64,000 nt of DNA, taken from positions 5,272,001 through 5,336,000 of the forward strand of contig CM119371.1 in assembly GCA_051294905.1 (NCBI GenBank). The letters run 5' to 3'. Shown one piece after another: positions 26,508-64,000 of the stretch. Position numbers and translations under genes: made by a program. Position 1 is the first letter of the stretch, and each line of letters starts with the position of its first letter. The stretch is from Botryllus schlosseri. Lineage: Eukaryota. The notes beneath the pieces were generated by a model. It was not told where the DNA came from. It saw only the letters and a list, made by a program, of their open reading frames with translations, and searched no databases.

Positions 26508-26532
26508 CAAAACACAACCCAGCGACCAGGCG
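26508..26532 (-). pseudogene. PLK1-like: 3' part of the PLK1-like kinase exon split by the palindromic element
   Basis: Reads (A)WSLGCVL followed by a GTGAGT donor (26507-26502), continuing the exon part at 45818-45982. Confidence 0.8.
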
Positions 26533-29500
26533 AGTAGTAAGGGGATCTACTTTTGTTGCAGGCCAATCAAATTTCGCCACGTCGCCCTAATTGCCACGCC
26601 TATATGACGCCCATTGCCGTACCTATAAGACACCCCTTGCCACATCATCCACCCATTGCCGCACCTATAGCACACCCATTGCCACTCATTGTTTTGTGAA
26701 TTTCAATACCGGTTTTCCATGTATATTTAGCAATATGTATTGAATAACTTGAAATGTATCATCACTAATTAATTAATATAAAATGCGATTTTAAGCGCTG
26801 CGACTTGAAAATATTAATATAATAAGTTACTTTTTTGGATATACATAACATTCAGATTACACATAAATTTCGAAAACTATGATGTCAATAGAATACTATA
26901 TTTGCCAGATATTCACAGATAACACTCATCAACGTTGAACTAGGCGCGGGGTTCTATGATGATATATCAAAATTCTACACATCATCACTAATTAATTAAT
27001 TCATATAAAATGCGATTTTGAGCGCAGACAGATCGCGGTTTCGATTGCCGAGGTCTCCGCATTTCATGACCTAATATGAACGCACACTATACAACTGAAT
27101 TCATTCCAATACCTGCAAATTTACTTTGCATGTCGAGTATAAGGATAATTTAATCAGCGCTAAACGCCAACGGACTAGCCGTAGGCGCACAATTCTCGGC
27201 GTTACAATTAAACAAACTTTTCGCGGCAGGTACGCGATTCCTAACGGTTTCTACAGTTTCCACATTTCACGACTTATTTTCTTTGGACGCATACAAGCGA
27301 TTCCCAAGGTCGAGGCTATGGAAACAAATCAAGCATGAGTACGTAAATCTTGAGCTTAGATCTCCGAGATTCTTGTATGCAACTAACATTATAGACAACC
27401 ATTCGACAATATTCAACCAGCAATAATGCTTTCGATATAGTGCATCATGTACAGCGACACGCTGATCAATTCAAATTCAACAATGGGATCCCCCCCGCAC
27501 AATTATGAAGCCCGTTGTTTGCTATAAGCCGGGAAATTAGAGTCGCTGCTTCGCACCATTTTACAGGCAGTCTCAGACACTTTGCTGCATCCGAGCTTCA
27601 TACTAATACATGCATAATTTTTGCATGACGAGAATACGGGTAATACGGTCAATAATTGCCGGAGGCGAGTCATTTAAACCTTGTTGCTAGATAATACCGC
27701 TTTCGGCTACAACAAAGTTGCCCTGCAACAAAAAATAGAAGCCCTAATGATCATGCAGAGGAAAGTTCAATTATACATCGAATTATTCGAATAGACTATC
27801 GACATTGTGTAGGTATGAAGTGAAATAGAACGGAGTTTACGCAAAAGTTGCTATTGATCATAGACCAAGCTTGCTTTCAGAGCTGGAAACTAAATGCATA
27901 TGAAAATTTACCTAGGTTTTCCCCACACGCATCAAATGTAGGCCTACTCAAGTGTTTATGAGGTGGCGAATAGTTCGAAGGTTTTTGGCATGCAAGGGTG
28001 TCACATAGAATTGTGGAGTTTTCTGTAAACTATAATCCAGTGATCGATTTTCAATCACTATATTTTTCATTAATATAAACTAAGTTACTGTTAGTAGGCA
28101 AACCCTAGGAAAGTATCCTCTGATAAAAGCAGGAGTATATTTGTTATCCGTGAAATAAATAGATGGTGCGCAATATGAGCGGTGCTGCGATGACTGACAA
28201 ATACTTTGAATTAATGTATAAAAGTAGCGATTTCGAACTACGTAAAAAGTTAGTCCAGCTCACGCAAGCGACAATTTGCGCGTTCTGAAGCCGTAAATTT
28301 ACTCAACAGCATTGAGATAGCCCTGATTTAAAGAAATTTCATCACACATCTAATGATGGAGCACCTTCAAAACTAACGCAGTCGAATACCGACTTTTACG
28401 CATATCTGTTTTGCATGAACATAGCGTATACCTAAACATAGTCAATTTTAATAACGGAATTACCATGCTAATAATCAAATCCCCAGCCTGAAACTTGGTA
28501 CGCAGTCGTAGGACATTATGAAAATACACCATACCAAACTTCGTCAGACATTTCATGATGTAACACCTTTAAAACTAACGCAGTTCTCTACAGACTTTTG
28601 CGTAAATCTGTTTTTCGGTATGCGATCGATGCATTAATGACTTTAATACTATGTACTTTAAATTATCCACACTTATGAGTCGAAATGTTGTTAAGTAACT
28701 CATGTTTTCAGCATAACCTAAAAGCAAAGTGGACGAATTTCCATGTTGATCAAATACCCCAAACACTGCTTGCTTTCATAGTTAGTAATTAAGCGCATCA
28801 CAGAATTTACCCAAAAAAGTCGGTACTCCGAAAATTTTGTAAAGTAGAGCTTTCGGCGTTGGACTTAAGTTCAAATGAACAAGTGTTCACGTAGGTTCGA
28901 GGTCTGAATGAGTCTTTTAAAGCATATAGAAACGAAAAAACTAATCTAAAAAATTTACGAAGTTTGGATGCGGCATATTTGGCTTTTTTAAAAATTATTT
29001 ATACCCACGATTCGAAATATTGTTAACTAACTTATGTTTTCGACATAAGATAAGCGTGAAGTGTACAAATTTCGATGTTGCGCAAATACCATAAACTTTT
29101 CTTGCTTTCAGAGCTGACAACTAAATGCAACACAGACTTTACGCAAAAAACTTATACTTGAGCACTACGAAATGTACAAGTACTTACCTTTACACGACGT
29201 TTTTTGTAAAATGAATACTAATTTTATTAAAAAATAAAATAGAGCGAAAAACTACATTTTATCCCGGAACGCAACATGAGAAATCGTTTCGATAATATCC
29301 AACATGGTGGTTCACTTCGAGGGTAATTTGATTTAGAAAATATTATACCGACATCGCGGCATCTTTTAAAAACAAAACCATGATCAATGCTTGAGAGACC
29401 ATTTTTGCTATTTTTCATTGACATAAGTCATTCTGGAACGCGAAAACGCATTGTACGATATAGATGAAAATCAAGCAAATCCTAGGATCCTCATTTTCAA

Positions 29501-29659
29501 AGTAGCTTAGATCTCGAAATAAGCTTTGACTCGCTATTCTCCTCAAACCATGGAATTATCACGAGTATCAGCACCTTCGATCACTGAAGAAAAAGATGAA
29601 ATTATATCCGAAGCATATTCCTTGACCAGGAATTTTATCATGTACGAACTCGACGGCTC

Positions 29660-32450
29660 ATGCTAATATGTGACTCCTCACCTTGAAACTTGGTACGTAG
29701 TTGTAGGAATTGTGATTATGCAGCATACCAAATTTCCTCACGCATTTCATAATGGAACAACTTTAAAACTAACGCGGTTCTACATCGACTTTTTGCGTAC
29801 ATCTGTTTTGCGTGGGGGCGTATAGCACGTACCTATACATAGTCAACTTTAACAACGGAATTACCATGCTTAACATTGAATCCCAACTCGAAACTTGATA
29901 CGTAGTTGTAGAACATTATGGCAATGCACCATGCTAAATTTCATCACACATCTAATGATGGAACACCTTTAAAACTAACGCAGTCGAATACCGACTTTTA
30001 CGCATATCTGTTTTGCGTGAACATAGCATATACCTATACATAGTCAATTTTAATAGCAGAATTACCATGTTAAACATTGAATTCCCACCTTGAAAGTTGG
30101 TACGCGGTTATAGGAGATTATAACAATGCACCATACCAAATCCCATCACACATTTCATGATGGAACAACTTTAAAACTAACGCGGCTCTACATCGACTTT
30201 TTGCGTACATCTGTTTTGCGGGAGCGTATAGCACGTAGCCTACCCATACATAGCCAACTTTAATAACGGAATTACCATGCTTAACATTGAATCCCAACTC
30301 GAAACTTGATACGTAGTTATAGGACATTATGGCAATTCACCATGCTAAATTTCATCACACATCTAATGATGGAACACCTTTGAAACTATCGCAGTCGAAT
30401 ACCAACTTTTACGCATATCTGTTTTTCGTGAACATAGCATATACCCATACATAGTCAATTTTAATAACAGAATTAGCATGCTAAACATTAAATTCTCACC
30501 TTGAACGTTGATACGCGGTTATAGGACATAATAACAATGCACCATACCAAATTTCGTCAGACATTTCATGATGTAATACCTTTAAAACCAACGCAGTTCT
30601 ATACAGACTTTTGGCTAAATCTGTTTTTCCGTAGCGTAGCACGTACCTATACATAGTAAACTTTAATAACGGATTTAGCATGTTAATAATCGACTTAGTT
30701 TAAATAAAATACGGAATATAAACTAATCGAAAAATTCGGTAACCAATTTCGCGTAGGCTATGCATGCATACAAATGAGGAAAGTTACATCAACGCGTGTT
30801 AAAGTAGCTTTATCGAGTTATCGAATGATTTTTCCTTACATCAAAACAACTAGAATGTAGAACTAAATTAAAAAACGTATCTAAATGAGCTCCAGGGCAT
30901 TGTGATTATGCTGCATACCAAATTTCATCACACATTTCATGATGGAACAACTTTAAAACTAACGCAGTTCTATAGCAACTTTTGCCTAAATCTCTTTTCG
31001 GTAGCGTGTACATATACATAGTCAGATTTAATAACAGAATTATCATGCTAATATGTGACTCCTCACCTTGAAACTTGGTACGTAGTTGTAGGACATTGTG
31101 ATTATGCAGCATACTAAATTTCTTCACGCATTTCATAATGGAACAACTTTAAAACTAACGCGGTTCTACATCGACTTTTTGCGTTCATCTGTTTTGCGTG
31201 GTGGCGTATAGCACGTACCTATACATAGTCAACTTTAACAACGGAATTACCATGCTTAACATTGAATCCCAACTCGAAACTTGATACGTAGTTGTAGGAC
31301 ATTATGGCAATGCACCATGCTAAATTTCATCACACATCTAATAATGGAACACCTTTAAAACTAACGCAGTCGAATACCGACTTTTACGCATATCTGTTTT
31401 GCGTGAACATAGCATATACCTATACATAGTCAATTTTAATAGCAGAATTACCATGTTAAACATTGAATTCCCACCTTGAAAGTTGGTACGCGGTTATAGG
31501 AGATTATAAAATGCACCATACCAAATCCCATCACACATTTCATGATGGAACAACTTTAAAACTAACGCGGCTCTACATCGACTTTTTGCGTACATCTGTT
31601 TTGCGGGAGCGTATAGCACGTAGCCTACCCATACATAACCAAATTTAATAACGGAATTACCATGCTTAACATTGAATCCCAACTCGAAACTTGATACGTA
31701 GTTATAGGACATTATGGCAATTCACCATGCTAAATTTCATCACACATCTAATGATGGAACACCTTTGAAACTATCGCAGTCGAATACCAACTTTTACGCA
31801 TATCTGTTTTTCGTGAACATAGCATATACCCATACATAGTCAATTTTAATAACAGAATTAGCATGCTAAACATTAAATTCTCACCTTGAACGTTGATACG
31901 CGGTTGTAGGACATAATAACAATGCACCATTCCAAATTTCGTCAGACATTTCATGATGTAACACCTTTAAAACCAACGCAGTTCTATACAGACTTTTGGC
32001 TAAATCTGTTTTTCCGTAGCGTAGCACGTACCTATACATAGTCAACTTTAATAACGGATTTAGCATGTTAATAATCGACTCCCCACCTTGAAACTCGGTA
32101 CGCAGTTGTAAGACATTATGAAAATGCACCATGTCAAATTTTGTTACGCATTTCTTGATTGAACAACTTTAAAACTAACGCAGTTCCATACCGACTTTTG
32201 CGAGTGCGTAGCACGTACCTATATGCATACTCAACTTTCATAACGGAATTACCGAGCTAAACATTGAATGCGCAACTTGAAGATTGGTTCACAGGTGTAG
32301 GGCAGTATGACAATGGAACACATCAAATTTCATCACACATTTCATGATGGAACACCTTTAAAACTAACGCAGTTCTATACCAACCTCGCGTGAATCTGTT
32401 TGCGGGAGCGCAGCACGTACCTATGCGTGATCAACTTTAGTGTTGGAATT
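29660..32450. repeat. Degenerate ~200-209-bp tandem repeat array in the left arm (13 units, plus 2 more at ~28335-28620)
   Basis: An AAAACTAACGC-like anchor recurs at 29765, 29971, 30173, 30382, 30584, 30955, 31151, 31357, 31558, 31767, 31969, 32171 and 32360. Confidence 0.9.
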
Positions 32451-32624
32451 ACATATGTAATTAAGTTTCAACACTTTTACAATGTTTCGTCTTGCTTCCT
32501 ATAACATCCCACTCGAGAAAATGCGTCGTAGGATATAGATGAAACTAGCACCACTCATCAAGACCGCTGAAAACAGTACATTTCAACATTTAGTAGCAGT
32601 AAATTTCTAGTAAAGTACAAGACA

Positions 32625-33389
32625 ATACTGCCAACGGTCGTTCAGATAGGATTCTTGCGATTTCGCACGAGAATCTATAAGCCACTTCCAGTTAGATGTT
32701 TCAAATGCAGCCGATTCGGTCACCGGGCAAAACACTGTAGAAGTACACAACGATGCACTAAATGTGGTGGTAGACATGAGTACTCGGCATGTCAGAATGC
32801 ACCCCGCTGCGTAAACTGCGGTGAAGCACACTCGGCGGGCTACACAGGATGCAGACGCTACAGACATGAGGTACAAGTCAATGCCATTATGGCGAACGAA
32901 AAGGTTAATTATTGGGAGGCGAATAAAATGATACAGACGCGAACGGCCACAGTAAACATACACTCTCCACAGGAATTTCCTCCATTGCCTAGCAATAACC
33001 TCCCACATTATGCGGATCAAACGATACTTCCAGCTGCGGCACTCGCAACATGCATGCGACCGGCTCCTGCTTCGCAAGAGCCAGTTGCCACAATACAATC
33101 CGACACGATAACTATATCAAAAACTAGCTTCTTCAAATTCATCGCAGATGTTATGAAGAATACTTTACTAGATTTCAATCAAGGTAAACAACTCGACATA
33201 GAGGCAATAGTCGCTAAATCAGCAGAAGGGATTTTCGGATTCCCCACTTCAGAATTGACTAGGTTTCCCACCACACAATCGCAACCCGATGGCGTGTTGG
33301 ATCTTACGAAAGCGACGCACCACGATTCTCTTCCACCTCACAATATAGTCGACGAACATTCTCCGGGAAATAAATCACCGCCTTCATGA
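32625..33389 (+). CDS. LINE ORF1 (gag-like), N-terminally truncated
   Basis: Open from the insertion junction (ILPTVVQIGFLRFRTRIYKPLPVR), followed by three CCHC knuckles: CFKCSRFGHRAKHC, CTKCGGRHEYSAC and CVNCGEAHSAGYTGC. Confidence 0.88.
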   Translation: MLPTVVQIGFLRFRTRIYKPLPVRCFKCSRFGHRAKHCRSTQRCTKCGGRHEYSACQNAPRCVNCGEAHSAGYTGCRRYRHEVQVNAIMANEKVNYWEANKMIQTRTATVNIHSPQEFPPLPSNNLPHYADQTILPAAALATCMRPAPASQEPVATIQSDTITISKTSFFKFIADVMKNTLLDFNQGKQLDIEAIVAKSAEGIFGFPTSELTRFPTTQSQPDGVLDLTKATHHDSLPPHNIVDEHSPGNKSPPS

Positions 33390-36300
33390 TACCTTTATCC
33401 ATTTTTCAATGGAACTGTCGTGGTATATATCACAAGCTACACGAATTGAAACACTTATTGACAAACTCGGCTGTGAAACCCGACATTATAGCCATCCAAG
33501 AATCTCACCTAGTATCCAAATACGTGCCTGTTATACATGGCTATTCCCTCGTAAGAAAAGATAGAGACGTTAATGGTGGAGGTGTGTGCTTCTTCATCAG
33601 CAATATGATTAAATTCGTTGAAATTCCTCTCCACGGTTACTCGCCAATTGAAGTGTTAGCAATAGAGGTAGAAGGGACACGCATATACAACGTTTACGTA
33701 CCCCCAGGAAGAGCTATATCACGAGATTTATTCTACCGTATCTTCGCCCAACACAGTAATAAATGCATTTATCTAGGTGATTTCAACGCTCATCATCCGA
33801 TGTTTAAGAGCATTCGCACAAATTCTTACGGTCGTCACCTCAACGCGGCGATGGATCGTTTTGATTTGGTTGCGCTGAACACAGACGTGCCAACCCGAGT
33901 GAACTTTTCCCTTAACGCGACGCAACGGCACAGCATACTTGACCTGACGCTGGCCACTCCCGACATTGCCCACCGAATTTCTACTACGGTCACAGACAGC
34001 CTGCTGGGCAGCGATCATTATATCATTATTAATGAAATCGACACAACTACCGACCGGACCCCTGAATGTCATGTTGAATCGTGGGCTCTGAAACGTGCCA
34101 ACTGGCAAAAATTCGCCGTTCTGTGCAACCAAGAACTTGAAGGATCTGCCCAGAACTCGCTGACGGTGGAAGATTTCACCAGAATACTCATCTCCACAGC
34201 CGCAATCTGTATCCCGACAACAAAGCCCCGTAAGAAGCCCATGATGCCGTGGTGGAACGATGCCTGCTCGCGGGCAATCAGGTTGAAGAAAGCTGCCTTC
34301 AAAAAAATGAAGCTCACATTCCGGGAAGACGCAATAATCTTATTTAAAAGGCGCAGGGCAGAGGCCAGAAAAACAATATTGGAGACTAAGAAAACATTTT
34401 GGCGGTCATTTTGCAACTCCCTTGATAAAAATTGCAAATTATCCAAAGTATGGAGAATAGCCAAATCTATGAATGGTTACAAAACTTGGAGCCATATCAG
34501 CGTGTTGTCGCACAACGGAGCTACGGTTAAAGGAGACATAAATATCGCAAACACCCTAGCAAAACAATTTCGCTCTGTTAGCAGCGATGAAAACTACGAT
34601 CCGACATTTCGAAACCAACGCCTCTCGATTGAGAAATCCTTCCGCGACAACGAAGCAACGGCTGCAGTGCAAAGTAGCTTGTCACCGGTCGATATCAATT
34701 CAGAATTCACAATGGTCGAACTGAAGAATGTTCTCAAAACACGAAAAAGCACAGCCCCTGGTGTCGACAGAGTATGTCAGCAAATGCTTGCAAACCTGCC
34801 TGAAGATTGCTTATCCGTACTGATCGGCATCATAAACGAATCGTGGAGAACCGGCAAATGCCCACAATCTTGGAAGCACGCTATCGTTGTACCAATTCCC
34901 AAGCCTGGTAAACCGAAAGAATCCGTTTCCTCGTACAGGCCCATTTCCCTCACGAGCAATTTATGTAAGAGTGTCGAACGAATGATCAATTACAGATTGA
35001 AATGGTGGCTTGATAGCAAAAAATTACTCCATCCCGCGCTCAGCGGGTTTCGAAGTAGACGTTCAGCAAAAGATTGTATCATGAGTCTACATGACGATGT
35101 CTACAAGTCCATATGGAACCAGCGATCAACAATAGCTGTGTTCATAGACTTAGAGAAAGCGTATGACATGGTTTGGATAAATGGACTAATCCACAAGCTA
35201 CACGGTCAGGGTTTGCGAGGAAACATACTAGACTGGTTGAGGTCGTTCTTATCGGATAGAAAATTTCAGGTTCGCGTGGGGTCTTCTTATTCGGACATAT
35301 TTCCGCTAGAAAACGGTCTTCCTCAGGGCAGCGTTTTAAGCCCGATCATGTACAACCTCATGATGAACGATCTGCCTGATCAAATTGAATCAAGCATCAA
35401 TATATTCGCAGATGATATATGTTTGTGGGAGACTGGTCTCAATATCGAACACATTGCCACTTCACTCCAGGCGTCATTGGAGAAGTTGTCAGATTGGTGT
35501 AAAAAATGGGGATTTCGAATAAATGCAAATAAATGCTCCTCTATGATATTCACCAAAAAACGTAAATTACCAGATGTCCGACTGAAAATAGATGGGATAA
35601 CCGTGCCTATCAGTAATGAATTTAAATATCTCGGGGTCGTATTCGATAAACGATTATCCTATAAAGCGCACACCAATGTAGTTGCAGCGAAATGCGTTGC
35701 GCGATTGAATTTGCTACGTTTCCTAAGTGGCACCACTTGGGGAGCGTCCAAGGAATGTTTAATGACGATTTATAGAGTACTTATACGGTCAGTGATCGAG
35801 TATGGCTTTGAGGCATATATGTTTAGCCCAAAATACAATTCAAACCGTATCCAGTGGATACAAAACGCCGCCTTGAGAATTTGTTGCGGGGCAATGAAAA
35901 GCACCCCGATTTGTACACTCCAACATACAACGAATGAATTGCCGATTCACATTCGCCACCGCAGAGCTTGCTTAATATACAAGTGCTACGTCCGATCTCA
36001 CCCAACGCATCCATGTCGGCCACTATGCGAGAACTCTTGGCACGAAATTTTCCCAGATTCGATCAAGTTTACCACTTTTAATATGTACACTCAAATATCA
36101 AGCATAAGGGGACTTGACATTGCGGTTCCCAGCCCAATTTCCCTTCCACCATGGATTGACCTACCGGTAAAAGTTGATACATGTCTTCGAAGTTTGGCTT
36201 ATCACCACCCTAACTCACCGTTCGGACGTGAGTGTCAAGACTACGTAGAAACCAACTATGACTTATATTTACAAATATATACTGATGGCTCCAAAATGGA

Positions 36301-37126
36301 CAGCGGATGTGGTAGTAGTTTTCATGTCAATCTTTTGAACATCTCCTCGAAATTTCGAATCCCCAAAACAAGATCTATATTTACAGCAGAGTTGTTTGCG
36401 ATCTACAAAGCTCTGGAATGGGTTTCCGGACAATGCGAGCCGCCAAGTCATAATAGTATAGCCATTCTTTCGGATAGTCTAAGCGCTTTGGACGCGATAC
36501 AGCACCGTTCCTCGACTCATCATTTAATTTCCAAAATATTCGATGTATGCTTAGATCTCTTAAAAAGAGAAATTATTATTGCTTTTATATGGATTCCAGG
36601 TCACGAAGGCGTCGGTTTCAATCACGTCGCAGACACCCTCGCAAAGGAGGCCGCCGGGGGCGAAGCAGGAGTCAACGACGAAGAAAGTCTGAAAATAACA
36701 CTATCGGAATGCAAGACTATCATAAACGAGCAATCCGAAAGGTGGTGGACCTCCGAGTTCAATGCGGCAGAGACTGGTTTGCACTATCGACGCTTCACTG
36801 AAGACAAAGAAACCACAAAGGAAATGAATAAGCTGGATAAACAATATAGTACAACGCTATTTAGACTCCAGACAGGCCATTGCAAACTCAACGGACACCT
36901 GTACCGTATTGGGTGCCATGATGATGGACTATGTGAAATTTGTTACTCGGAGGAATCGGTCGAACACTTCTTGATCCAGTGCAGCAGATACGACGACCAC
37001 CGAACTTCACTTAAAAGAGCCGCCGAACAATTAGGCATATGTTTTGTACTGGACAATTTATTATCTGACCCCAGAATGCTTATAAAAGTAGTGGAATTTG
37101 TAAATGCCACCGGGCGAGTCATCTGA
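33386..37126 (+). CDS. LINE ORF2: APE endonuclease, reverse transcriptase, RNase H and C-terminal zinc knuckle (1246 aa, uninterrupted)
   Basis: APE motifs QWNCRG, IQESH, GDFNAH, SDH. RT motifs YRPISLTS, PQGSVLSP, FADD, YLGV. RNase H motifs YTDGSK, AELFAI, SDSLSAL, WIPGH..N..AD.LAK. C-terminal CEIC..ESVEHFLIQC. Confidence 0.96.
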   Translation: MIPLSIFQWNCRGIYHKLHELKHLLTNSAVKPDIIAIQESHLVSKYVPVIHGYSLVRKDRDVNGGGVCFFISNMIKFVEIPLHGYSPIEVLAIEVEGTRIYNVYVPPGRAISRDLFYRIFAQHSNKCIYLGDFNAHHPMFKSIRTNSYGRHLNAAMDRFDLVALNTDVPTRVNFSLNATQRHSILDLTLATPDIAHRISTTVTDSLLGSDHYIIINEIDTTTDRTPECHVESWALKRANWQKFAVLCNQELEGSAQNSLTVEDFTRILISTAAICIPTTKPRKKPMMPWWNDACSRAIRLKKAAFKKMKLTFREDAIILFKRRRAEARKTILETKKTFWRSFCNSLDKNCKLSKVWRIAKSMNGYKTWSHISVLSHNGATVKGDINIANTLAKQFRSVSSDENYDPTFRNQRLSIEKSFRDNEATAAVQSSLSPVDINSEFTMVELKNVLKTRKSTAPGVDRVCQQMLANLPEDCLSVLIGIINESWRTGKCPQSWKHAIVVPIPKPGKPKESVSSYRPISLTSNLCKSVERMINYRLKWWLDSKKLLHPALSGFRSRRSAKDCIMSLHDDVYKSIWNQRSTIAVFIDLEKAYDMVWINGLIHKLHGQGLRGNILDWLRSFLSDRKFQVRVGSSYSDIFPLENGLPQGSVLSPIMYNLMMNDLPDQIESSINIFADDICLWETGLNIEHIATSLQASLEKLSDWCKKWGFRINANKCSSMIFTKKRKLPDVRLKIDGITVPISNEFKYLGVVFDKRLSYKAHTNVVAAKCVARLNLLRFLSGTTWGASKECLMTIYRVLIRSVIEYGFEAYMFSPKYNSNRIQWIQNAALRICCGAMKSTPICTLQHTTNELPIHIRHRRACLIYKCYVRSHPTHPCRPLCENSWHEIFPDSIKFTTFNMYTQISSIRGLDIAVPSPISLPPWIDLPVKVDTCLRSLAYHHPNSPFGRECQDYVETNYDLYLQIYTDGSKMDSGCGSSFHVNLLNISSKFRIPKTRSIFTAELFAIYKALEWVSGQCEPPSHNSIAILSDSLSALDAIQHRSSTHHLISKIFDVCLDLLKREIIIAFIWIPGHEGVGFNHVADTLAKEAAGGEAGVNDEESLKITLSECKTIINEQSERWWTSEFNAAETGLHYRRFTEDKETTKEMNKLDKQYSTTLFRLQTGHCKLNGHLYRIGCHDDGLCEICYSEESVEHFLIQCSRYDDHRTSLKRAAEQLGICFVLDNLLSDPRMLIKVVEFVNATGRVI

Positions 37127-39901
37127 TTGCTTGACAATGTGGACTTTATTATGGGCCCTTGAGTCATGGTGCGAAATGACTTCGTAGTCGGTGCACCAAT
37201 TTTCCCTTATTCAACCAACCAACCAAGACCGCTGAAAACAGTACATTTCAACATTAAGTAGCAGTAAATTTCTAGTAAAGTACAAGACGTGATGATTTCC
37301 GAGTGAGCTAAAAAGTAAGTATTGCAGGTATAGTTTACCTGAAAACCGAATACTCTGAAATAGAAGTAGATGCAGTGTAAATAGTTGATCACTTGATTAA
37401 GTTTAGTGCAAGCAGATAAAACCTATACTTGAGTAGTACAAAATGCACGAGTACTTCGCTATCGCCTCCCTCCACGTAATAAGTGTCTACGGTTTAAGAC
37501 TGCTTTTACCGATACTCGTCCGTTTCAGTTTTAGATAGAATTCGGAAACCAAATAATTTTCATAAACATAAGCTAATTTAATGAATTTACTCGAATGCAC
37601 TATGCTGCGCTGATAAGATTAATTATAATATAATTATCATGTTACAGCGATTTTTCTAGCGTAGAAAATCTTTAAAATGTAGTAAGCAGGCCAAATGAAG
37701 ATATTCGTTGAGCTGAATAAACATAAAAATACTCTAGACTACTTTATCGGTACTTTACAGTTACAGTTTTAGATAAAATTTGTCCCTTTCACCTATAATT
37801 ACAACTCCTCGCTATCTAAACATGTTTAGAATATATTATTTGCGATGATACGAACCCGTGAAGTACTCAAGTTGCTTTTCGTAGGATATAGATGAAACTG
37901 ACAACACTCACCAAGACCAGTGATCCACTGAAAAAAGTACATTGTAGCAGTAAAGTCCTACTAAAGTACAAGAAGTAATGATTTCCCAGTTAGTTAAAAA
38001 GTAAGTATTGAGGTATAGTTTGGTCGAAAAAGCGAAAAACTCTGAAATAGAAGTAGATGCAGTGTAAATAGGTAATCACTTCATTAAGTATAGCGCAAGC
38101 AGGCCAAACCCATACTTAAGTACTGCAAATGTACAAGTACTTCGCTATGTTCTCCCTCCACGTAAAAAGTGACTAGGTTTTAGAGTACTTTATCGGTACT
38201 CGACAGTTTCAGTGTTAGATAAAATTTGGTAAGACTTTAAATTTTAAAGTAGTTTGAGCTTACGTTTGTATCACCTTGACAAGTAACATTATCAGACATG
38301 AAAATGATACTATCACCGAATATAGAAGTTAACACGCGTCAATGTGCTTCGGAATGCACGAGAAATTGCTTACTAAGAGAAGTATATTGTTGTATACACA
38401 ATAGTGGAGAGAATATTTAAAATGTAGTAAGCAGGCCGATGGGTATTCGTTTAGTTGTATAGGCATAAAAAACATTCCCGCGCGCGCGTCTTAGTATTAG
38501 GTGGTAGGGTTAGGAAGTGCTTTGTTTAAGAGCGCGCGGGAATGTTTTTCATGTCTATACAACTAAACGAATACCCATCGGCCTGCTTACTACATTTTAA
38601 ATATTCTCTCCACTATTGTGTATACAACAATATACTTCTCTTAGTAAGCAATTTCTCGTGCATTCCGAAGCACATTGACGCGTGTTAACTTCTATATTCG
38701 GTGATAGTATCATTTTCATGTCTGATAATGTTACTTGTCAAGGTGATACAAACGTAAGCTCAATCTACTTTAAAATTTAAAGTCTTACCAAATTTTATCT
38801 AACACTGAAACTGTCGAGTACCGATAAAGTACTCTAAAACCTAGTCACTTTTTACGTGGAGGGAGAACATAGCGAAGTACTTGTACATTTGCAGTACTTA
38901 AGTATAGGTTTGGCCTGCTTGCGCTATACTTAATGAAGTGATTACCTATTTACACTGCATCTACTTCTATTTCAGAGTTTTTCGCTTTTTCGACCAAACT
39001 ATACCTCAATACTTACTTTTTAACTAACTGGGAAATCATTACTTCTTGTACTTTAGTAGGACTTTACTGCTACAATGTACTTTTTTCAGTGGATCACTGG
39101 TCTTGGTGAGTGTTGTCAGTTTCATCTATATCCTACGAAAAGCAACTTGAGTACTTCACGGGTTCGTATCATCGCAAATAATATATTCTAAACATGTTTA
39201 GATAGCGAGGAGTTGTAATTATAGGTGAAAGGGACAAATTTTATCTAAAACTATAACTGTAAAGTACCGATAAAGTAGTCTAGAGTATTTTTATGTTTAT
39301 TCAGCTCAACGAATATCTTCATTTGGCCTGCTTACTACATTTTAAAGATTTTCTACGCTAGAAAAATCGCTGTAACATGATAATTATATTATAATTAATC
39401 TTATCAGCGCAGCATAGTGCATTCGAGTAAATTCATTAAATTAGCTTATGTTTATGAAAATTATTTGGTTTCCGAATTCTATCTAAAACTGAAACGGACG
39501 AGTATCGGTAAAAGCAGTCTTAAACCGTAGACACTTATTACGTGGAGGGAGGCGATAGCGAAGTACTCGTGCATTTTGTACTACTCAAGTATAGGTTTTA
39601 TCTGCTTGCACTAAACTTAATCAAGTGATCAACTATTTACACTGCATCTACTTCTATTTCAGAGTATTCGGTTTTCAGGTAAACTATACCTGCAATACTT
39701 ACTTTTTAGCTCACTCGGAAATCATCACGTCTTGTACTTTACTAGAAATTTACTGCTACTAAATGTTGAAATATACTGTTTTCAGCGGTCTTGATGAGTG
39801 GTGCTAGTTTCATCTATATCCTACGACGCATTTTCTCGAGTGGGATGTTATAGGAAGCAAGACGAAACATTGTAAAAGTGTTGAAACTTAATTACATATG
39901 T

Positions 39902-42692
39902 AATTCCATCACTAAAGTTGATCACGCATAGGTACGTGCTGCGCTCCCGCAAACAGATTCACGCGAGGTTGGTATAGAACTGCGTTAGTTTTAAAGGTGT
40001 TCCATCATGAAATGTGTGATGAAATTTGATGTGTTCCATTGTCATACTGCCCTACACCTGTGAACCAATCTTCAAGTTGCGCATTCAATGTTTAGCTCGG
40101 TAATTCCGTTATGAAAGTTGAGTATGCATATAGGTACGTGCTACGCACTCGCAAAAGTCGGTATGGAACTGCGTTAGTTTTAAAGTTGTTCAATCAAGAA
40201 ATGCGTAACAAAATTTGACATGGTGCATTGTCATAATGTCTTACAACTGCGTACCGAGTTTCAAGGTGGGGAGTCGATTATTAACATGCTAAATCCGTTA
40301 TTAAAGTTGACTATGTATAGGTACGTGCTACGCTACGGAAAAACAGATTTAGCCAAAAGTCTGTATAGAACTGCGTTGGTTTTAAAGGTGTTACATCATG
40401 AAATGTCTGACGAAATTTGGAATGGTGCATTGTTATTATGTCCTACAACCGCGTATCAACGTTCAAGGTGAGAATTTAATGTTTAGCATGCTAATTCTGT
40501 TATTAAAATTGACTATGTATGGGTATATGCTATGTTCACGAAAAACAGATATGCGTAAAAGTTGGTATTCGACTGCGATAGTTTCAAAGGTGTTCCATCA
40601 TTAGATGTGTGATGAAATTTAGCATGGTGAATTGCCATAATGTCCTATAACTACGTATCAAGTTTCGAGTTGGGATTCAATGTTAAGCATGGTAATTCCG
40701 TTATTAAATTTGGTTATGTATGGGTAGGCTACGTGCTATACGCTCCCGCAAAACAGATGTACGCAAAAAGTCGATGTAGAGCCGCGTTAGTTTTAAAGTT
40801 GTTCCATCATGAAATGTGTGATGGGATTTGGTATGGTGCATTTTATAATCTCCTATAACCGCGTACCAACTTTCAAGGTGGGAATTCAATGTTTAACATG
40901 GTAATTCTGCTATTAAAATTGACTATGTATAGGTATATGCTATGTTCACGCAAAACAGATATGCGTAAAAGTCGGTATTCGACTGCGTTAGTTTTAAAGG
41001 TGTTCCATTATTAGATGTGTGATGAAATTTAGCATGGTGCATTGCCATAATGTCCTACAACTACGTATCAAGTTTCGAGTTGGGATTCAATGTTAAGCAT
41101 GGTAATTCCGTTGTTAAAGTTGACTATGTATAGGTACGTGCTATACGCCACCACGCAAAACAGATGAACGCAAAAAGTCGATGTAGAACCGCGTTAGTTT
41201 TAAAGTTGTTCCATTATGAAATGCGTGAAGAAATTTGGTATGCGGCATAATCACAATGTCCTACAACTACGTACCAAGTTTCAAGGTGAGGAGTCACATA
41301 TTAGCATGATAATTCTGTTATTAAATCTGACTATGTATATGTACACGCTACCGAAAACAGATTTAGGCAAAAGTTGCTATAGAACTGCGTTAGTTTTAAA
41401 GTTGTTCCATCATGAAATGTGTGATGAAATTTGGTATGCAGCATAATCACAATGCCCTGGAGCTCATTTAGATACGTTTTTTAATTTAGTTCTACATTCT
41501 AGTTGTTTTGATGTAAGGAAAAATCATTCGATAACTCGATACAGCTACTTTAACACGCGTTGATGTAACTTTCCTCATTTGTATGCATGCATAGCCTACG
41601 CGAAATTGGTTACCGAATTTTTCGATTAGTTTATATTCCGTATTTTATTTAAACCAAGTCGATTATTAACATGCTAAATCCGTTATTAAAGTTTACTATG
41701 TATAGGTACGTGCTACGCTACGGAAAAACAGATTTAGCCAAAAGTCTGTATAGAACTGCGTTGGTTTTAAAGGTATTACATCATGAAATGTCTGACGAAA
41801 TTTGGTATGGTGCATTGTTATTATGTCCTATAACCGCGTATCAACGTTCAAGGTGAGAATTTAATGTTTAGCATGCTAATTCTGTTATTAAAATTGACTA
41901 TGTATGGGTATATGCTATGTTCACGAAAAACAGATATGCGTAAAAGTTGGTATTCGACTGCGATAGTTTCAAAGGTGTTCCATCATTAGATGTGTGATGA
42001 AATTTAGCATGGTGAATTGCCATAATGTCCTATAACTACGTATCAAGTTTCGAGTTGGGATTCAATGTTAAGCATGGTAATTCCGTTATTAAAGTTGGCT
42101 ATGTATGGGTAGGCTACGTGCTATACGCTCCCGCAAAACAGATGTACGCAAAAAGTCGATGTAGAGCCGCGTTAGTTTTAAAGTTGTTCCATCATGAAAT
42201 GTGTGATGGGATTTGGTATGGTGCATTGTTATAATCTCCTATAACCGCGTACCAACTTTCAAGGTGGGAATTCAATGTTTAACATGGTAATTCTGCTATT
42301 AAAATTGACTATGTATAGGTATATGCTATGTTCACGCAAAACAGATACGCGTAAAAGTCGGTATTCGACTGCGTTAGTTTTAAAGGTGTTCCATCATTAG
42401 ATGTGTGATGAAATTTAGCATGGTGCATTGCCATAATGTTCTACAACTACGTATCAAGTTTCGAGTTGGGATTCAATGTTAAGCATGGTAATTCCGTTGT
42501 TAAAGTTGACTATGTATAGGTACGTGCTATACGCCCCCACGCAAAACAGATGTACGCAAAAAGTCGATGTAGAACCGCGTTAGTTTTAAAGTTGTTCCAT
42601 TATGAAATGCGTGAGGAAATTTGGTATGCTGCATAATCACAATTCCTACAACTACGTACCAAGTTTCAAGGTGAGGAGTCACATATTAGCAT
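39902..42692. repeat. Mirror copy of the ~200-209-bp tandem array in the right arm
   Basis: Reverse complement of 29660-32450. Confidence 0.9.
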
Positions 42693-45600
42693 GAGCCGTC
42701 GAGTTCGTACATGATAAAATTCCTGGTCAAGGAATATGCTTCGGATATAATTTCATCTTTTTCTTCAGTGATCGAAGGTGCTGATACTCGTGATAATTCC
42801 ATGGTTTGAGGAGAATAGCGAGTCAAAGCTTATTTCGAGATCTAAGCTACTTTGAAAATGAGGATCCTAGGATTTGCTTGATTTTCATCTATATCGTACA
42901 ATGCGTTTTCGCGTTCCAGAATGACTTATGTCAATGAAAAATAGCAAAAATGGTCTCTCAAGCATTGATCATGGTTTTGTTTTTAAAAGATGCCGCGATG
43001 TCGGTATAATATTTTCTAAATCAAATTACCCTCGAAGTGAACCACCATGTTGGATATCATCGAAACGATTTCTCATGTTGCGTTCCGGGATAAAATGTAG
43101 TTTTTCGCTCTATTTTATTTTTTAATAAAATTAGTATTCATTTTACAAAAAACGTCGTGTAAAGGTAAGTACTTGTACATTTCGTAGTGCTCAAGTATAA
43201 GTTTTTTGCGTAAAGTCTGTGTTGCATTTAGTTGTCAGCTCTGAAAGCAAGAAAAGTTTATGGTATTTGCGCAACATCAAAATTTGTACACTTCACGCTT
43301 ATCTTATGTCGAAAACATAAGTTAGTTAACAATATTTCGAATCGTGGGTATAAATAATTTTTAAAAAAGCCAAATATGCCGCATCCAAACTTCGTAAATT
43401 TTTTAGATTAGTTTTTTCGTTTCTATATGCTTTAAAAGACTCATTCAGACCTCGAACCTACGTGAACACTTGTTCATTTGAACTTAAGTCCAACGCCGAA
43501 AGCTCTACTTTACAAAATTTTCGGAGTACCGACTTTTTTGGGTAAATTCTGTGATGCGCTTAATTACTAACTATGAAAGCAAGCAGTGTTTGGGGTATTT
43601 GATCAACATGGAAATTCGTCCACTTTGCTTTTAGGTTATGCTGAAAACATGAGTTACTTAACAACATTTCGACTCATAAGTGTGGATAATTTAAAGTACA
43701 TAGTATTAAAGTCATTAATGCATCGATCGCATACCGAAAAACAGATTTACGCAAAAGTCTGTAGAGAACTGCGTTAGTTTTAAAGGTGTTACATCATGAA
43801 ATGTCTGACGAAGTTTGGTATGGTGTATTTTCATAATGTCCTACGACTGCGTACCAAGTTTCAGGCTGGGGATTTGATTATTAGCATGGTAATTCCGTTA
43901 TTAAAATTGACTATGTTTAGGTATACGCTATGTTCATGCAAAACAGATATGCGTAAAAGTCGGTATTCGACTGCGTTAGTTTTGAAGGTGCTCCATCATT
44001 AGATGTGTGATGAAATTTCTTTAAATCAGGGCTATCTCAATGCTGTTGAGTAAATTTACGGCTTCAGAACGCGCAAATTGTCGCTTGCGTGAGCTGGACT
44101 AACTTTTTACGTAGTTCGAAATCGCTACTTTTATACATTAATTCAAAGTATTTGTCAGTCATCGCAGCACCGCTCATATTGCGCACCATCTATTTATTTC
44201 ACGGATAACAAATATACTCCTGCTTTTATCAGAGGATACTTTCCTAGGGTTTGCCTACTAACAGTAACTTAGTTTATATTAATGAAAAATATAGTGATTG
44301 AAAATCGATCACTGGATTATAGTTTACAGAAAACTCCACAATTCTATGTGACACCCTTGCATGCCAAAAACCTTCGAACTATTCGCCACCTCATAAACAC
44401 TTGAGTAGGCCTACATTTGATGCGCCTGGGGAAAACCTAGGTAAATTTTCATATGCATTTAGTTTCCAGCTCTGAAAGCAAGCTTGGTCTATGATCAATA
44501 GCAACTTTTGCGTAAACTCCGTTCTATTTCACTTCATACCTACACAATGTCGATAGTCTATTCGAATAATTCGATGAATAATTGAACTTTCCTCTGCATG
44601 ATCATTAGGGCTTCTATTTTTTGTTGCAGGGCAACTTTGTTGTAGCCGAAAGCGGTATTATCTAGCAACAAGGTTTAAATGACTCGCCTCCGGCAATTAT
44701 TGACCGTATTACCCGTATTCTCGTCATGCAAAAATTATGCATGTATTAGTATGAAGCTCGGATGCAGCAAAGTGTCTGAGACTGCCTGTAAAATGGTGCG
44801 AAGCAGCGACTCTAATTTCCCGGCTTATAGCAAACAACGGGCTTCATAATTGTGCGGGGGGGATCCCATTGTTGAATTTGAATTGATCAGCGTGTCGCTG
44901 TACATGATGCACTATATCGAAAGCATTATTGCTGGTTGAATATTGTCGAATGGTTGTCTATAATGTTAGTTGCATACAAGAATCTCGGAGATCTAAGCTC
45001 AAGATTTACGTACTCATGCTTGATTTGTTTCCATAGCCTCAACCTTGGGAATCGCTTGTATGCGTCCAAAGAAAATAAGTCGTGAAATGTGGAAACTGTA
45101 GAAACCGTTAGGAATCGCGTACCTGCCGCGAAAAGTTTGTTTAATTGTAACGCCGAGAATTGTGCGCCTACGGCTAGTCCGTTGGCGTTTAGCGCTGATT
45201 AAATTATCCTTATACTCGACATGCAAAGTAAATTTGCAGGTATTGGAATGAATTCAGTTGTAGTGTGCTTTCATATTAGGTCATGAAATGCGGAGACCTC
45301 GGCAATCGAAACCGCGATCTGTCTGCGCTCAAAATCGCATTTTATATGAATTAATTAATTAGTGATGATGTGTAGAATTTTGATATATCATCATAGAACC
45401 CCGCGCCTAGTTCAACGTTGATGAGTGTTATCTGTGAATATCTGGCAAATATAGTATTCTATTGACATCATAGTTTTCGAAATTTATGTGTAATCTGAAT
45501 GTTATGTATATCCAAAAAAGTAACTTATTATATTAATATTTTCAAGTCGCAGCGCTTAAAATCGCATTTTATATTAATTAATTAGTGATGATACATTTCA

Positions 45601-45817
45601 AGTTATTCAATACATATTGCTAAATATACATGGAAAACCGGTATTGAAATTCACAAAACAATGAGTGGCAATGGGTGTGCTATAGGTGCGGCAATGGGTG
45701 GATGATGTGGCAAGGGGTGTCTTATAGGTACGGCAATGGGCGTCATATAGGCGTGGCAATTAGGGCGACGTGGCGAAATTTGATTGGCCTGCAACAAAAG
45801 TAGATCCCCTTACTACT

Positions 45818-45982
45818 CAGGCGTCCGCTTCGAAACTGTGTTCATTCTTGCCGAGAACTTCCGGGTCATTAATAGTCGGGGCTGCCGCAAAGAGTATTCG
45901 TTGTGTGGCTGTCGCAGACGACCTTGGTAGCTTGACCAAAATCTTCAAACTTCACCTCATTATTGTTTGGGAAGTCTGTCAG
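45818..45982 (-). pseudogene. PLK1-like: PLK1-like kinase exon (subdomains VII-IX), 5' part, frameshifted
   Basis: NNEVKFEDFGQATKVVCDSHTTNTLCGSPDY(*/fs)PEVLGKNEHSFEADA vs PLK1 [47 protein letters not shown]. Confidence 0.85.
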
Positions 45983-46329: not shown

Positions 46330-47620
46330 TTTACGCGCTTTTTTCTGACTATTTCTCCGGTTTACGCGCTTTTTTCCAACTATTACCATTTTCTAAATAA
46401 CCGTGGAAATCCTTGTATCCATGAAGAATACGGTACAGTACCGTAAAAAGGGGTCAATCATAATTCTCATTTTTTTAGTTATCATTTTTCGAAAAACCGT
46501 GAAAATCCATGCACCCATGTAGAATATGGTCACGTAAACATCAAATGTCTGCGCGCGTTAAAAGAGCTTACTTGATTTCATGAGGGAAGGCCCTCTTACA
46601 TTTATGCGATTTTTGGTTCTCATTTTGCGAATAATCGTGAAAATACATGCAGGCCTACCTATGTAGAATATGATAGGCCAACCGTAAACAGTGGTCGATC
46701 ATTAAATTTCTGCACCGGTTAAAAGAGCTTACTTTTATTTTATGAGGGAAGGCCCTCCTACATTTACGCAATTTATAGTTATCATTTTACGAATAACCGT
46801 GGAAAGACATGTAGGCCTACCCATGTAGAATATGGTACCGTAAACAGTTGTCGATCATCAAATTTCTGTGCGCGGTAAATGAGCTTACATTGATTTTACA
46901 AGGGTGGTCTCCTACATTTACGCGATTTTTGGTTATCATTTTTTGAAAATAGCTGAAAATACATGCAGGCCTAACCATATAAAATATGGTACCGTAAACA
47001 GTTGTCGATCATTAAATTTCCGCACGCGTTGTGCATGCGAGCTTACTTCGATTTATGAGGGGGGCCCCTCCTACATTTACGTATTTTTGGTTATCATTTT
47101 GCGAATAACCGTGAAAATATATGTGCCCATGTAGAATATGGTACCGTAAACAGTTGTCGATCATTAAATCCTGCACGCATTGTACGAGCTTACTTAGATT
47201 TCATGAGGAGGGGCCCTCCTACATTTACAAAATTTTTGGTTATCATTTTGCGAATGACCGTGAAAATATATGTACATGTACTGTACACCTGTAGAATATG
47301 ATACCGTAAACAGTTGTTGATCATTAAATCCTGCCCGCGTTGTACGAGATTACTTCGATTTACGCAATTTTTGGTTATCATTTTGCAAATAACTGAAAAT
47401 ACATGCAGCCATGCAGGCCTACCCATGTAGAAAATGTTACTGTAAACAGTTGTCGATAATTAAATTTCTGCACATGTTATAAGAGCTTACTTATATTTTA
47501 TGAGGGGGGCCCTGCTACATTTATGGAATTTATAGTTATCGTTTTGCGAATAACCGTGAAAACATATGTAGGCTACCCATGTAAAATATGGTACCGTAAA
47601 CGGTTGTCGATCATCAAATT
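46330..47620. repeat. ~150-bp degenerate tandem repeat (about 8 units) inside the hAT element
   Basis: TATGGTACCGTAAACAGTTGTCGATCAT recurs at ~46831, ~46985, ~47137 and in more diverged form on either side. Confidence 0.85.
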
Positions 47621-49350
47621 GGTGATTTAAGTGAGAGAGGCGATCGCATCCGCTAACATAAAATTTTGTCGTGAATGATTATCACTTCCATGATATTTTT
47701 GAATAATATTCAACACCCTTTTCTCAGTGCTTTAAAATTACAATAACATTGACAAGAAACTACTACAGTGTATACAGGAAGTATATATTTTCAGTGACTG
47801 GTGCATCTCATTCATTTTCAGTAATAGGCTAACTCCATGTCAGTAGCCCTAAAACAAATTAATGGGTTATTTCAGTTTTTAGATTTGACAGAAATTTGGA
47901 CCAAGTGATTTTGAAATATATCCGAGTAGCCTACATCACAATTTCAAGTTTTTAAATTCAATATCCAGCTTTCGAAGCCACCGCATGATAAAAAGCAAGC
48001 TTTTCCGGCTCATTCAATTGTAAAAATTGATAGAATTTTTGGTAGGTCTGTACATGAGCTATCTTTTAGAAGTTGATCTAATATATCATTCAAGTTGCAA
48101 TTTAGCTTTTTTGTGTACGGCACTCAATTTTAAAGTCATTGCTAATGAAAATCATTGGAGTATCCCTCTCATTTCTGTCAACTTGAAAATTTTCATCACT
48201 AGTCATCATATGGAAGCTATTACAGGAATGCTGAAAAATGAGTTTTTATTGACTATATAATTTTTAAGTTGTGACAGCAATGTATGTTGTAGGCAGAAGT
48301 AGGCGATTTGGATAATGTTTAGTTCCTCTTAAAACTAGCGCTCGAAATTTTCGTGTGGACAGTGTTGCGCCAACAATATTTGAATTCGACGCTGTGTATG
48401 ACTTGATTTTGAGAATTATTATGAGCCTAGTTCTGACCCCTTACCTCATTTTATTGTCAGGTTCAAGAGCTTCTTCTATTTTATCTTTAGGCGTTTAGAC
48501 GAGGTTGTCTGGCTAAGCTATTTTATGACCGGTACCATTGCAAGCATTCATTGTAAAATTTACCATAAACATGCAGCTGTCTTGGTTAAGTAACTTCTGG
48601 GACAAGTGGTGATTTGTAATATACCGGTATTTGTTCTTTTCTGTAGGTACTTTTGCTGGTTAGCTGTTAGGAATATATTTCACTGTCCAAATATAGTCCA
48701 CGAGTTATTCCTTGTTGAGTGATCCGGTAATAATTCTTGATGACCATAAACTCCTCTTGGTTGAGTCATCTTGTCAAAGATTGGAAGTCATTGTTGTTTG
48801 TTGTTGTTTTGAGTATTCATGAATCATAATGTCTCTGCTTCGGTAAGTTTACACCAAGCCAATATCATTTTGTACCCGTATGATAGTTTCCATTTAGTTG
48901 TTCTTTTTGACTTTTAGTGTCATATTTGCTATCATCATTTTGATTTCTACTTTTTTGTAGAACTAAATGCATCAATTCAATTGTCCGGTCATAGTAGTTT
49001 CTTCATTCATTGGAAGTTTCAATTCTATGGATGTGTTCTATAAACTTCATTGTTTGGTCACCGTAGTGATCGATTCGCTCTTGGTCCTCAGTCAGGGTTG
49101 TAACCGAGTCAAATAACAATTCTACTTTTATATTTTGATCTGAGCCAAGTCGAGTCTCGAAAATATCACGACTCGAGTCATTGGAATCCTGCCATCGTTT
49201 CCTTGAAAATGTATGAACTTTTACTTTTTCAGTTTCCATTGTCACTGTATTTGTGATTACTTTCACGCATGAAAATGACATCTTGAACTTGAATGACACA
49301 GTCGCCTGTGAACAATCACTACATTGTGATTGATTGTAGATACATAAAGG

Positions 49351-63527: not shown

Positions 63528-64000
63528 TCTTCTGGATTATCTGTATATTACTTTACTTCTTCAAGCATCACACATCAAACGCTCTCTGCTTGAAAACGAG
63601 TATTCAACGATAGCTTGGAATGAGCTATTACATAGTAATATAATTCCTATATTATAGCAACCCGGTCTAAAATACAGGAGGTATTAGCAAAAACGGACCA
63701 GTGTAATAAATAGCAATACCCCATACGATAATCTGCAAGCCTTCAGCAAATCACAAATTTTGCATAATCACGAACACCAAAATCTATCACGTTGCACAAC
63801 TGATGAATTATTATAGAATACTGGTGCACCAAAATCAACTGTGCATAAACAACAGCGTCAAAATTACAAAAATATTACACTGGTCAACACATTTTTAGGC
63901 AGACAAACGTAAGAGTGGTTTTGGGGGTTCTGAAGGGCACTGATTCCAAATATGACCTTGGTTTTTTTCAAATTCGCTATTGTTGTGGAGATAACCCATG

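Follow-up and report, generated by a model that had tools for sequence, protein, structure and literature searches.

How does a mobile element that is one giant palindrome arise, spread and keep its two arms alike? The question is raised by a stretch of 64,000 nt from the genome of Botryllus schlosseri (assembly GCA_051294905.1, contig CM119371.1, positions 5,272,001 to 5,336,000 of the forward strand), the whole of which we call the window. Positions 26533-45817 of the window are a real mobile element, and this element is one giant palindrome. We think that it is probably an old, decayed copy from a family of about 270 whole-palindrome, non-autonomous derivatives of Mavericks (Polintons) that are moved by a helper and equalised as hairpins. 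An earlier account made from the letters of the window alone (the sequence-only reading) had described an element of 14,620 bp with defined ends, a target-site duplication (TSD) and two inverted arms, once a long interspersed nuclear element (LINE) is subtracted. The junctions and a realignment of the arms bear this structure out.

A whole-palindrome element and its family

The element begins with AGTAGT and ends with ACTACT, and CAGGCG stands on either side of it (26527-26532 and 45818-45823) as a 6-bp TSD. At the left junction CGACCAGGCG is followed at 26533 by AGTAGTAAGGGG (in a longer view by AGTAGTAAGGGGATC), and at the right junction CCCCTTACTACT, or GATCCCCTTACTACT in the longer view, ends at 45817 and is followed by CAGGCGTCC. 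A repeat finder returned complementary inverted segments of 558 nt (100%), 5,539 nt (100%) and 1,262 nt (99%), which tile the whole interval save 32624-37288, a segment present in the left arm only. Removal of this insertion in silico leaves 14,620 bp in two arms of about 7.29 kb. The right arm (38532-45817, minus strand) runs without interruption and terminates in CCCCTTACTACT. When one arm was aligned globally with the reverse complement of the other, about 7,288 bp could be compared, with 21 substitutions and a single indel of 2 bp; the 21 differences amount to 0.3% and are evenly distributed along the arm. The unpaired centre comprises 46 nt (38486-38531). A 33-bp loop had been described before at the same centre, and the gap between the two figures comes only from the counting of partial pairing. 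No arm frame reaches 100 amino acids (aa), the longest having 90 and 95 aa, as the sequence-only reading had it. It had also reported that pPolB and integrase are absent from the arms, and we likewise found no pPolB or rve domain in any arm frame, which is why the element is filed as non-autonomous.

The insertion in the left arm has two frames, of 272 aa and 1,250 aa. Since the 1,250-aa frame contains Exo_endo_phos, RVT_1 and RNase_H domains, the insertion is a LINE, with a gag-like frame and an APE-RT-RNase H frame (32624-37223, plus strand), and it terminates in AACCAACCAAC. It is flanked by a direct repeat of 65 nt, the first copy of which (32559-32623) is 98% identical to the second (37224-37288), with one mismatch; the start-to-start spacing of the two is 4,665 bp. 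A target duplication of 65 nt far exceeds the length that is usual for LINEs.

The same architecture recurs throughout the genome. Motif counts, which we set against reversed-pattern controls, gave 313 forward and 314 reverse matches to the subterminal motif CCAATCN7GCCACGTC (control 0), and a 33-mer peculiar to the subfamily of the window copy was found 64 times forward and 70 times reverse at no more than two mismatches (control 0). The first 600 nt of the window copy had 47 matches among 40 scored candidates, the best of 912, and these form plus/minus pairs 12-34 kb apart. Among 42 terminus pairs listed, the spacing ranges from 3.9 to 34.2 kb and is densest at 14.6-15.9 kb (11/42). Ten plus/minus pairs and then three more were opened, giving 13 palindromic copies. 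In four copies the alignment with the copy's own reverse complement spans the whole element, at 99.5-99.8%; the remaining opened copies have arms of 3.2-7.6 kb that are 99.4-100% identical and are broken by one-sided insertions or deletions. Each of the three larger opened pairs (the window copy, C1c and C1d) holds a nested transposon. The termini AGTAGT and ACTACT occur in 12 of the 13 copies (one right end reads AATACT), and a perfect 6-bp TSD flanks 12 of the 13, with one mismatch in the other. All of these TSDs are mutually different, so the further copies with TSDs of their own that the sequence-only reading had proposed to look for do exist, and insertion of each copy as one unit is supported. 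Two copies at different loci and with different TSDs are 99.85-99.89% identical, and movement must therefore have been recent. Chance is excluded because the same architecture is found at hundreds of loci and the reversed-pattern controls gave 0. By arithmetic from the motif counts, the family takes up about 4 Mb, or about 0.8% of the assembly.

Some further loci touch on this family. At G000:C1:3645197-3665905 two terminus motifs lie 120 nt apart at each end, in mirrored arrangement, and the pair C1:40580318-40602659 holds two hairpin centres; both may be nested or composite palindromes. Another dispersed repeat, which has AGTAGTTATGTTGTAAAGAGCCACAGAGAACCAAT at many loci (G000:C1:209900, 3965010, 10383035 and others), matched the end pattern, either by chance or as another element family. 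Sequencing runs of three other organism labels (X10, X11 and X12) share about one third of the sampled junction-stretch words, and the element terminus may be common to related species.

A conserved centre and mirrored arms

In six whole palindromes the axis consists of AAAAACATTCCCGCGCGC, a loop of 33-46 nt and GCGCGCGGGAATGTTTTT, and the loops are homologous. In the window, the left half of this hairpin-turn stem lies at 38468-38485 (C1:5310468-5310485, plus strand) and the right half at 38532-38549 (C1:5310532-5310549, minus strand). The hairpin-turn motif is present in 13/13 opened copies. Genome-wide, at no more than one mismatch, it was found 275 times forward and 270 times reverse (control 0), mostly as plus/minus pairs about 60 nt apart, and in equal-arm elements such a pair stands at the midpoint of the terminus pair. 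The paired form of these 275 and 270 matches indicates about 270 palindromic members. As turn and loop are conserved across the family, the palindrome is inherited and is not a fresh accident at each locus. An independent snap-back event for each copy is ruled out by the conservation of the centre in 13 copies and at about 270 sites; a single ancestral template switch may lie behind the founding palindrome. Of the earlier suggestion of a snap-back replicon that was integrated as a unit, the unit insertion stands; the window copy itself was not freshly made, its centre being conserved family-wide.

The loop of the window copy (38486-38531) and the centres of C3b, C5a, C1b, C6a and C10a contain TAGGGTTAGG, which is like the host telomere repeat, and further TTAGG-like words. 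The host repeat is (TTAGGG)n, with 11,434 matches including the end of contig 1; (TTAGG)n, with 25 matches, is ruled out in this role. The telomere-like words are either a relic of the telomere healing of a broken end or due to chance. It may be that the founding palindrome goes back to a broken Maverick end that was healed by telomere addition and folded back, with the loop retaining TAGGGTTAGG.

The arms were compared for symmetry in 12 copies; C1c, in which one end is rearranged, was left out. The left terminus of the window copy (26533-26568, plus strand) consists of AGTAGT, a 24-nt block that is hypervariable in the family (26539-26562, with its counterpart at 45788-45811) and an invariant CCAATC. 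Over positions 7-30 of the element the left and right ends of the same copy show 2 differences in 288, and different copies differ from each other by 59.9%. For positions 31-185 the figures are 2 in 1,906 within copies and 7.8% between them, and for positions 186-707 they are 3 in 6,227 and 1.3%. The last of these stretches is part of a subterminal segment peculiar to the palindromic family (26718-27512 in the window, plus strand), in which positions 186-707 are 98.7% identical between copies. Variable ungapped columns in positions 31-707 are symmetric in 73 cases out of 78 and asymmetric in 5. The larger units behave in the same way, in that modules and the amount of satellite vary between copies and the two arms of each copy align without large gaps. 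A mutation arises in one arm and the variation is mirrored, and therefore information passes from arm to arm during the spread of the family. One arm would thus template the other, and this step most likely takes place at a single-strand hairpin stage of replication. In the chromosome the transfer seems to be inefficient, because the window copy has evenly spread differences and a one-sided LINE. In aligned arms, the most diverged pairs (0.3-0.56%) are those of the three copies with the largest inserted DNA, namely the window copy, C1c and C1a; the divergences from whole-element self-alignment (0.2-0.5%) count loop and gaps and are not comparable with these values.

The hypervariable block deserves a closer look. 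Among 32 pairs of ends listed on contig 1, the two 24-mers are identical in 26, differ by one or two letters in 5 and are discordant in 1. About 45 further elements were listed besides that of the window, and nearly every listed element has a 24-mer of its own. By eye, blocks of the 24-mer recur in varying combinations, as in a mosaic. It is stable over short times, being the same in C17a and C1d. Between copies the 24-mer differs at about 60% of its positions and the adjacent 500 nt at 1.3%, and the block lies where a replication origin or an integrase-binding site would be expected.

Probable helper Mavericks and a Bcl-2 cargo

A palindrome that encodes neither polymerase nor integrase would need a partner, and candidates are found in the same genome. 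A Pfam search for A32-type ATPases led to a multi-copy frame of 274 aa, one copy of which lies within the 34-kb pair C1d. C1d is a palindromic element with a nested element of 17,829 bp (G000:C1:20441537-20459365). This nested Maverick starts with AGTAGT, has a 25-nt spacer before CCAATCA, terminal inverted repeats (TIRs) of 238 bp and the TSD AATGTT. It encodes a Bcl-2 protein, an integrase with rve and chromodomain, an ATPase, a BIR/IAP protein and a protein of 1,309 aa (P0001), in which B-family exonuclease and polymerase motifs are recognised by eye. The nearest atlas clusters of P0001 carry PF03175 (score 0.97). A further frame of 443 aa is a candidate for the double-jelly-roll (DJR) capsid protein and serves as a lead only: its nearest atlas clusters score 0.98, PF21738 (DJR-like) is found in only 14-24% of their members, and recognition was below the usual level. 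No family for an adenain-like protease was matched in the Pfam scan of the nested Maverick frames.

Compared with the genome, P0001 gave 354 candidates, and the best 35, which were scored, fall into lineages of 98-100% (one at 91%), 66-67% and 61% identity. Most of these 35 places have uninterrupted frames; copies of the 66-67% lineage have one or two in-frame stops each. Two copies of the 61% lineage lie within palindrome-type terminus pairs. A profile search of the genome with PF03175 returned 9 candidates, none significant, with no match in the control either; this is a false negative as the polymerase occurs in at least 35 places, and hmmscan of the two halves of P0001 likewise missed PF03175. 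Since this profile misses plain B-family polymerases, a negative PF03175 search is no evidence against Mavericks. Phmmer of the polymerase against PDB sequences returned only a C2H2 finger (E≥0.057).

The sequence-only reading had called for an autonomous Polinton with a matching terminus, and an apparently autonomous one was found at C1:23798357-23816022. It has 17,666 bp, the TSD CAAAGA and TIRs of about 140 nt. Its start reads AGTAGT-N24-CCAATCCCAGAAGGCCACGTCGCCTTAATTGCCACGCCTA, with the same 42-nt run as in the palindromes, and continues with repeats of the CCATTGCCAC family; in the window copy, short repeats of the same type occupy 26569-26717 (plus strand). From 10.4 of its 17.7 kb we read a BIR/IAP frame, an A32-like ATPase, an integrase with rve and Chromo domains and a polymerase frame of 1,294 aa that has no stops. 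The first 75 nt or so, including the identical 42-nt run, are thus common to the palindromes and an element that bears pPolB and rve, and the whole common part comprises the terminal ~140-180 nt. With (AGT)2//(ACT)2 ends, 6-bp TSDs and a helper with the same terminus, the placement of the element as a non-autonomous relative of Polintons has held up. The Maverick nested in C1d is ruled out as direct master, since its terminal spacer has 25 and not 24 nt and it shares with the palindromes only the Bcl-2 gene (77-82% at the nucleotide level) and a segment of about 90 nt. The hairpin-turn motif is absent from the nested Maverick, which was read whole, and from the 10.4 kb of the terminus-sharing one. 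There are at least three Maverick lineages in this genome, and both of the opened ones carry IAP (BIR) genes, one of them also Bcl-2.

The arms themselves are not devoid of genes in every copy. An intact Bcl-2 family gene of 172-211 aa, which points toward the palindrome centre, was found in the arms of five opened copies (C10a, C17a, C6a, C3b and C1d). The frames match PF00452 with E 2e-21 (76.9 bits against a cut-off of 31.4), and in the alignment the proteins show the BH1 (NWGR; ENWGRIV) and BH2 (GGW; NGGW) motifs. Genome-wide, the best 150 of 419 candidates were scored and have 75-100% identity; 138 of the 150 are without a stop, and most of the scored matches stand in convergent plus/minus pairs. 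A word-based homologue search with the Bcl-2 frame gave 61 candidates and none at E≤0.001. The pairwise ratio of nonsynonymous to synonymous substitution (dN/dS) is 0.31-0.47, with dS between palindromic copies of 0.10-0.55. The gene pair thus bears the codon-level signature of purifying selection in most family members, and its product is predicted to act against cell death. Another Maverick lineage has a homologue of this cargo, likewise a Bcl-2 gene. The available text of PMC8502044 notes Bcl2 and IAP homologues in adintoviruses, and therefore the cargo itself is not new.

In the window copy the gene has been lost. Each arm retains a remnant of 47 residues, with some residues ahead of the Met and, from there, about 38 codons (29523-29663 on the plus strand in the left arm and 42689-42829 on the minus strand in the right arm; tblastn E 2e-20). 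A satellite array with a 202-bp unit (411-bp higher-order) at 29659-32439, mirrored at 39900-42673, starts exactly where the remnant stops, in both arms. Some 38 codons into the gene, and in the same way in either arm, the reading frame is broken off by 2.8 kb of satellite; sister copies keep the gene intact. The lesion would be the same in both arms because Bcl-2 was destroyed before the last arm equalisation. The sequence-only reading, which had overlooked a 47-residue remnant in each arm, called the element gene-less; this describes the window copy, where only remnants are left, but not most family members, which carry two Bcl-2 genes.

As for the surroundings, close to either end of the window there is a C2H2 multi-finger frame with 9-10 fingers (1449-2714 and 62427-63536, both on the minus strand), and the element may sit in a zinc-finger gene cluster. 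Immediately to its right, at 46367-47651, there is an array of repeats of about 150-160 bp that have CCATGTAGAATATGGTACCGTAAACAGTTGTCGATCAT in common.

Mechanism, rival explanations and known systems

To our knowledge, replication of Mavericks or Polintons has never been observed, and ideas about it draw on analogy with adenovirus and phi29; a panhandle or "racket" model was reportedly put forward by Kapitonov and Jurka. A copy-back or defective-genome origin with a hairpin stage of replication is our best reading of the palindromes. The palindrome would supply cis sequences only, i.e. an origin, ends for the integrase and perhaps a packaging signal, and a helper Maverick would provide, in trans, the proteins for its protein-primed replication from the ends and for its insertion. 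Upon strand displacement the displaced single strand, being self-complementary, would snap back into a complete hairpin, where short TIRs would lead to a panhandle or racket instead. At this stage mismatches between the arms might be corrected, or one arm might be recopied, so that each new insertion would begin as a perfect palindrome. The integrase would then insert the duplex and produce the 6-bp TSD. After insertion the arms would drift apart, as may be seen in the window copy with its 0.3% and a LINE that landed in one arm.

Several points weigh against this reading. Comparison of the arms with two Mavericks revealed hardly any common sequence beyond the terminal ~140-180 nt and Bcl-2, and their derivation from "one end" of a Maverick is therefore tentative. 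The 13 opened copies were selected as the best matches to the window terminus or, in one case, as a large pair, the genome-wide family size rests on motif counts, and the size peak at about 15 kb is modest, with 11 of 42 listed pairs at 14.6-15.9 kb. The reads, which gave only short contigs, showed neither a replication intermediate nor a free end or hairpin form: three DNA contig sets and one RNA run (66 reads recovered, from about 3% of the run) contained no piece over a junction or the centre and no empty-site joint. Finally, arm equalisation could be chromosomal gene conversion instead.

This last point leads to the rival that survives best, although we regard it as unlikely. It also starts from a Maverick derivative moved by a helper integrase, and has the arms equalised after insertion by intrachromosomal gene conversion, like the palindromes of sex chromosomes. 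Arm identities of 99.4-100% throughout the 13 copies and mirrored variation are what gene conversion would produce, and it is general knowledge that a short spacer favours conversion from arm to arm. However, in the window copy 21 differences, evenly spread, still separate the arms and a LINE of 4.6 kb remains one-sided. Among aligned arms, divergence is also highest in the three copies into which most DNA has been inserted, a pattern that one would take for decay after insertion. Whole modules and a satellite array of 2.8 kb are among the changes found mirrored, and mirrored states have been carried to new loci.

It is very improbable that the element is instead a Foldback-type DNA transposon of another superfamily (MULE/FB, P/Galileo-like or hAT) whose Maverick-like ends are coincidental. 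Foldback-like elements such as Galileo do have very long TIRs with tandem repeats inside them, and also non-autonomous copies that are nearly all TIR, in the portion of PMC3573991 available to us, but that source gives a TSD of 7 bp for Galileo and the TSD here has 6 bp in 12/13 copies. In Drosophila FB the TSD is generally given as 9 bp. The (AGT)2//(ACT)2 ends, the first ~75 nt in common with an element that has pPolB and an rve integrase, and a cargo homologous to the Bcl-2 of another Maverick lineage speak against it as well, and a Pfam scan of 69 frames from arms and centre (8 + 52 + 9) returned no transposase domain. Least credible of all is an assembly or foldback-read artefact with the second arm absent from the organism: perfect palindromes are a generally known failure mode of some long-read libraries, and no read spanned the centre, but both ends adjoin unique DNA with a matching 6-bp TSD at 13 loci, about 270 centres and about 313 terminus pairs are present genome-wide, true substitutions distinguish the two arms, one of which also has a LINE bounded by a repeat of its own, and the nested insertions of other copies are also one-sided.

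Returning to the helper-moved, hairpin-equalised palindromes, the observations can be joined into a wider picture, which we put forward only tentatively. The family might be a Maverick lineage that lives like a satellite virus and does not consist of dead deletion derivatives. Its hairpin genomes would be remade from one arm in each cycle by the protein-primed polymerase of the helper, the stuffer satellites would hold the length at the ~15 kb that fits the helper capsid, and the selected, putatively anti-apoptotic Bcl-2 pair would serve the infected cell. It is also a possibility that read-through transcripts form perfect double-stranded RNA of several kilobases and feed into the control of the helpers by small RNAs. 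With about 270 copies, concerted 7-kb arms and a fixed hairpin turn, the family is a natural experiment on Maverick replication; a single-strand snap-back intermediate is what it would lead one to expect, and this can be searched for directly. It also implies that a non-autonomous parasite of a virus-like element can retain a selected gene for host interaction, and it puts at least 138 intact Bcl-2-like frames into one animal genome.

In literature searches, most of them aimed at this point, we did not find palindromic or foldback non-autonomous Mavericks described, which is no proof of absence; Repbase and Dfam lay outside these searches. According to the text of PMC8097293 available to us, the commonest end motif of vertebrate Mavericks is 5'-(AGT)2//(ACT)2-3' with a 6-bp TSD, and the elements measure 16.9 +/- 1.7 kb (range 12.7-24.6 kb) with TIRs of 46-1,447 bp; the accessible part of PMC10748475 gives 100-1,500 bp for Polinton TIRs. 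The palindromes resemble Mavericks in their ends, their 6-bp TSD and a length of about 15 kb, which falls within the range of 12.7-24.6 kb. They have TIRs as well, but here the TIR is the whole element, and two arms of about 7.3 kb go beyond these published ranges. Unlike Mavericks, they have no pPolB, integrase, ATPase or capsid gene in the arm frames, and they have a conserved central hairpin turn.

With Foldback elements (Drosophila FB and the "2-TIR" copies of Galileo) the palindromes have in common copies that are nearly all TIR, tandem repeats of about 200 bp in variable number and mosaic or chimeric copies, as far as the available text of PMC3573991 goes. The same text gives Galileo TIRs of up to about 1.25 kb, with 95.2% identity in the longest copy; the arms of the palindromes have about 7 kb and 99.4-100%. 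Foldback elements belong to the P or MULE transposase superfamilies and make TSDs of 7 or 9 bp, in contrast to the 6-bp TSD and the Maverick partner found here. Transpovirons are similar in being small, linear, TIR-bounded parasites that are thought, in the part of PMC5499653 available to us, to have arisen from polinton-like viruses that lost the morphogenesis module. Unlike the palindromes, they keep a helicase, are not palindromic and parasitise giant viruses of protists.

The DNA of incomplete adenovirus particles and the palindromes made by phi29 in vitro are palindromic defective genomes. Snap-back genomes are defined in the accessible text of PMC13506859, and those of adeno-associated virus (AAV) are described in that of PMC8235507. 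With such snap-back or copy-back defective genomes the family has in common a symmetric, helper-dependent palindrome, for which a derivation from one genome end is supported only by the terminal ~180 nt and Bcl-2. However, snap-back genomes are made de novo when the polymerase switches template during infection, whereas the palindromes have the same turn-around point and loop throughout, occupy about 270 loci of the germline as integrated copies and are inherited with that one fixed turn-around point. A further difference from snap-back genomes lies in the content of the palindromes, which includes a gene pair under selection and, over about half the length, stuffer or satellite that is unrelated.

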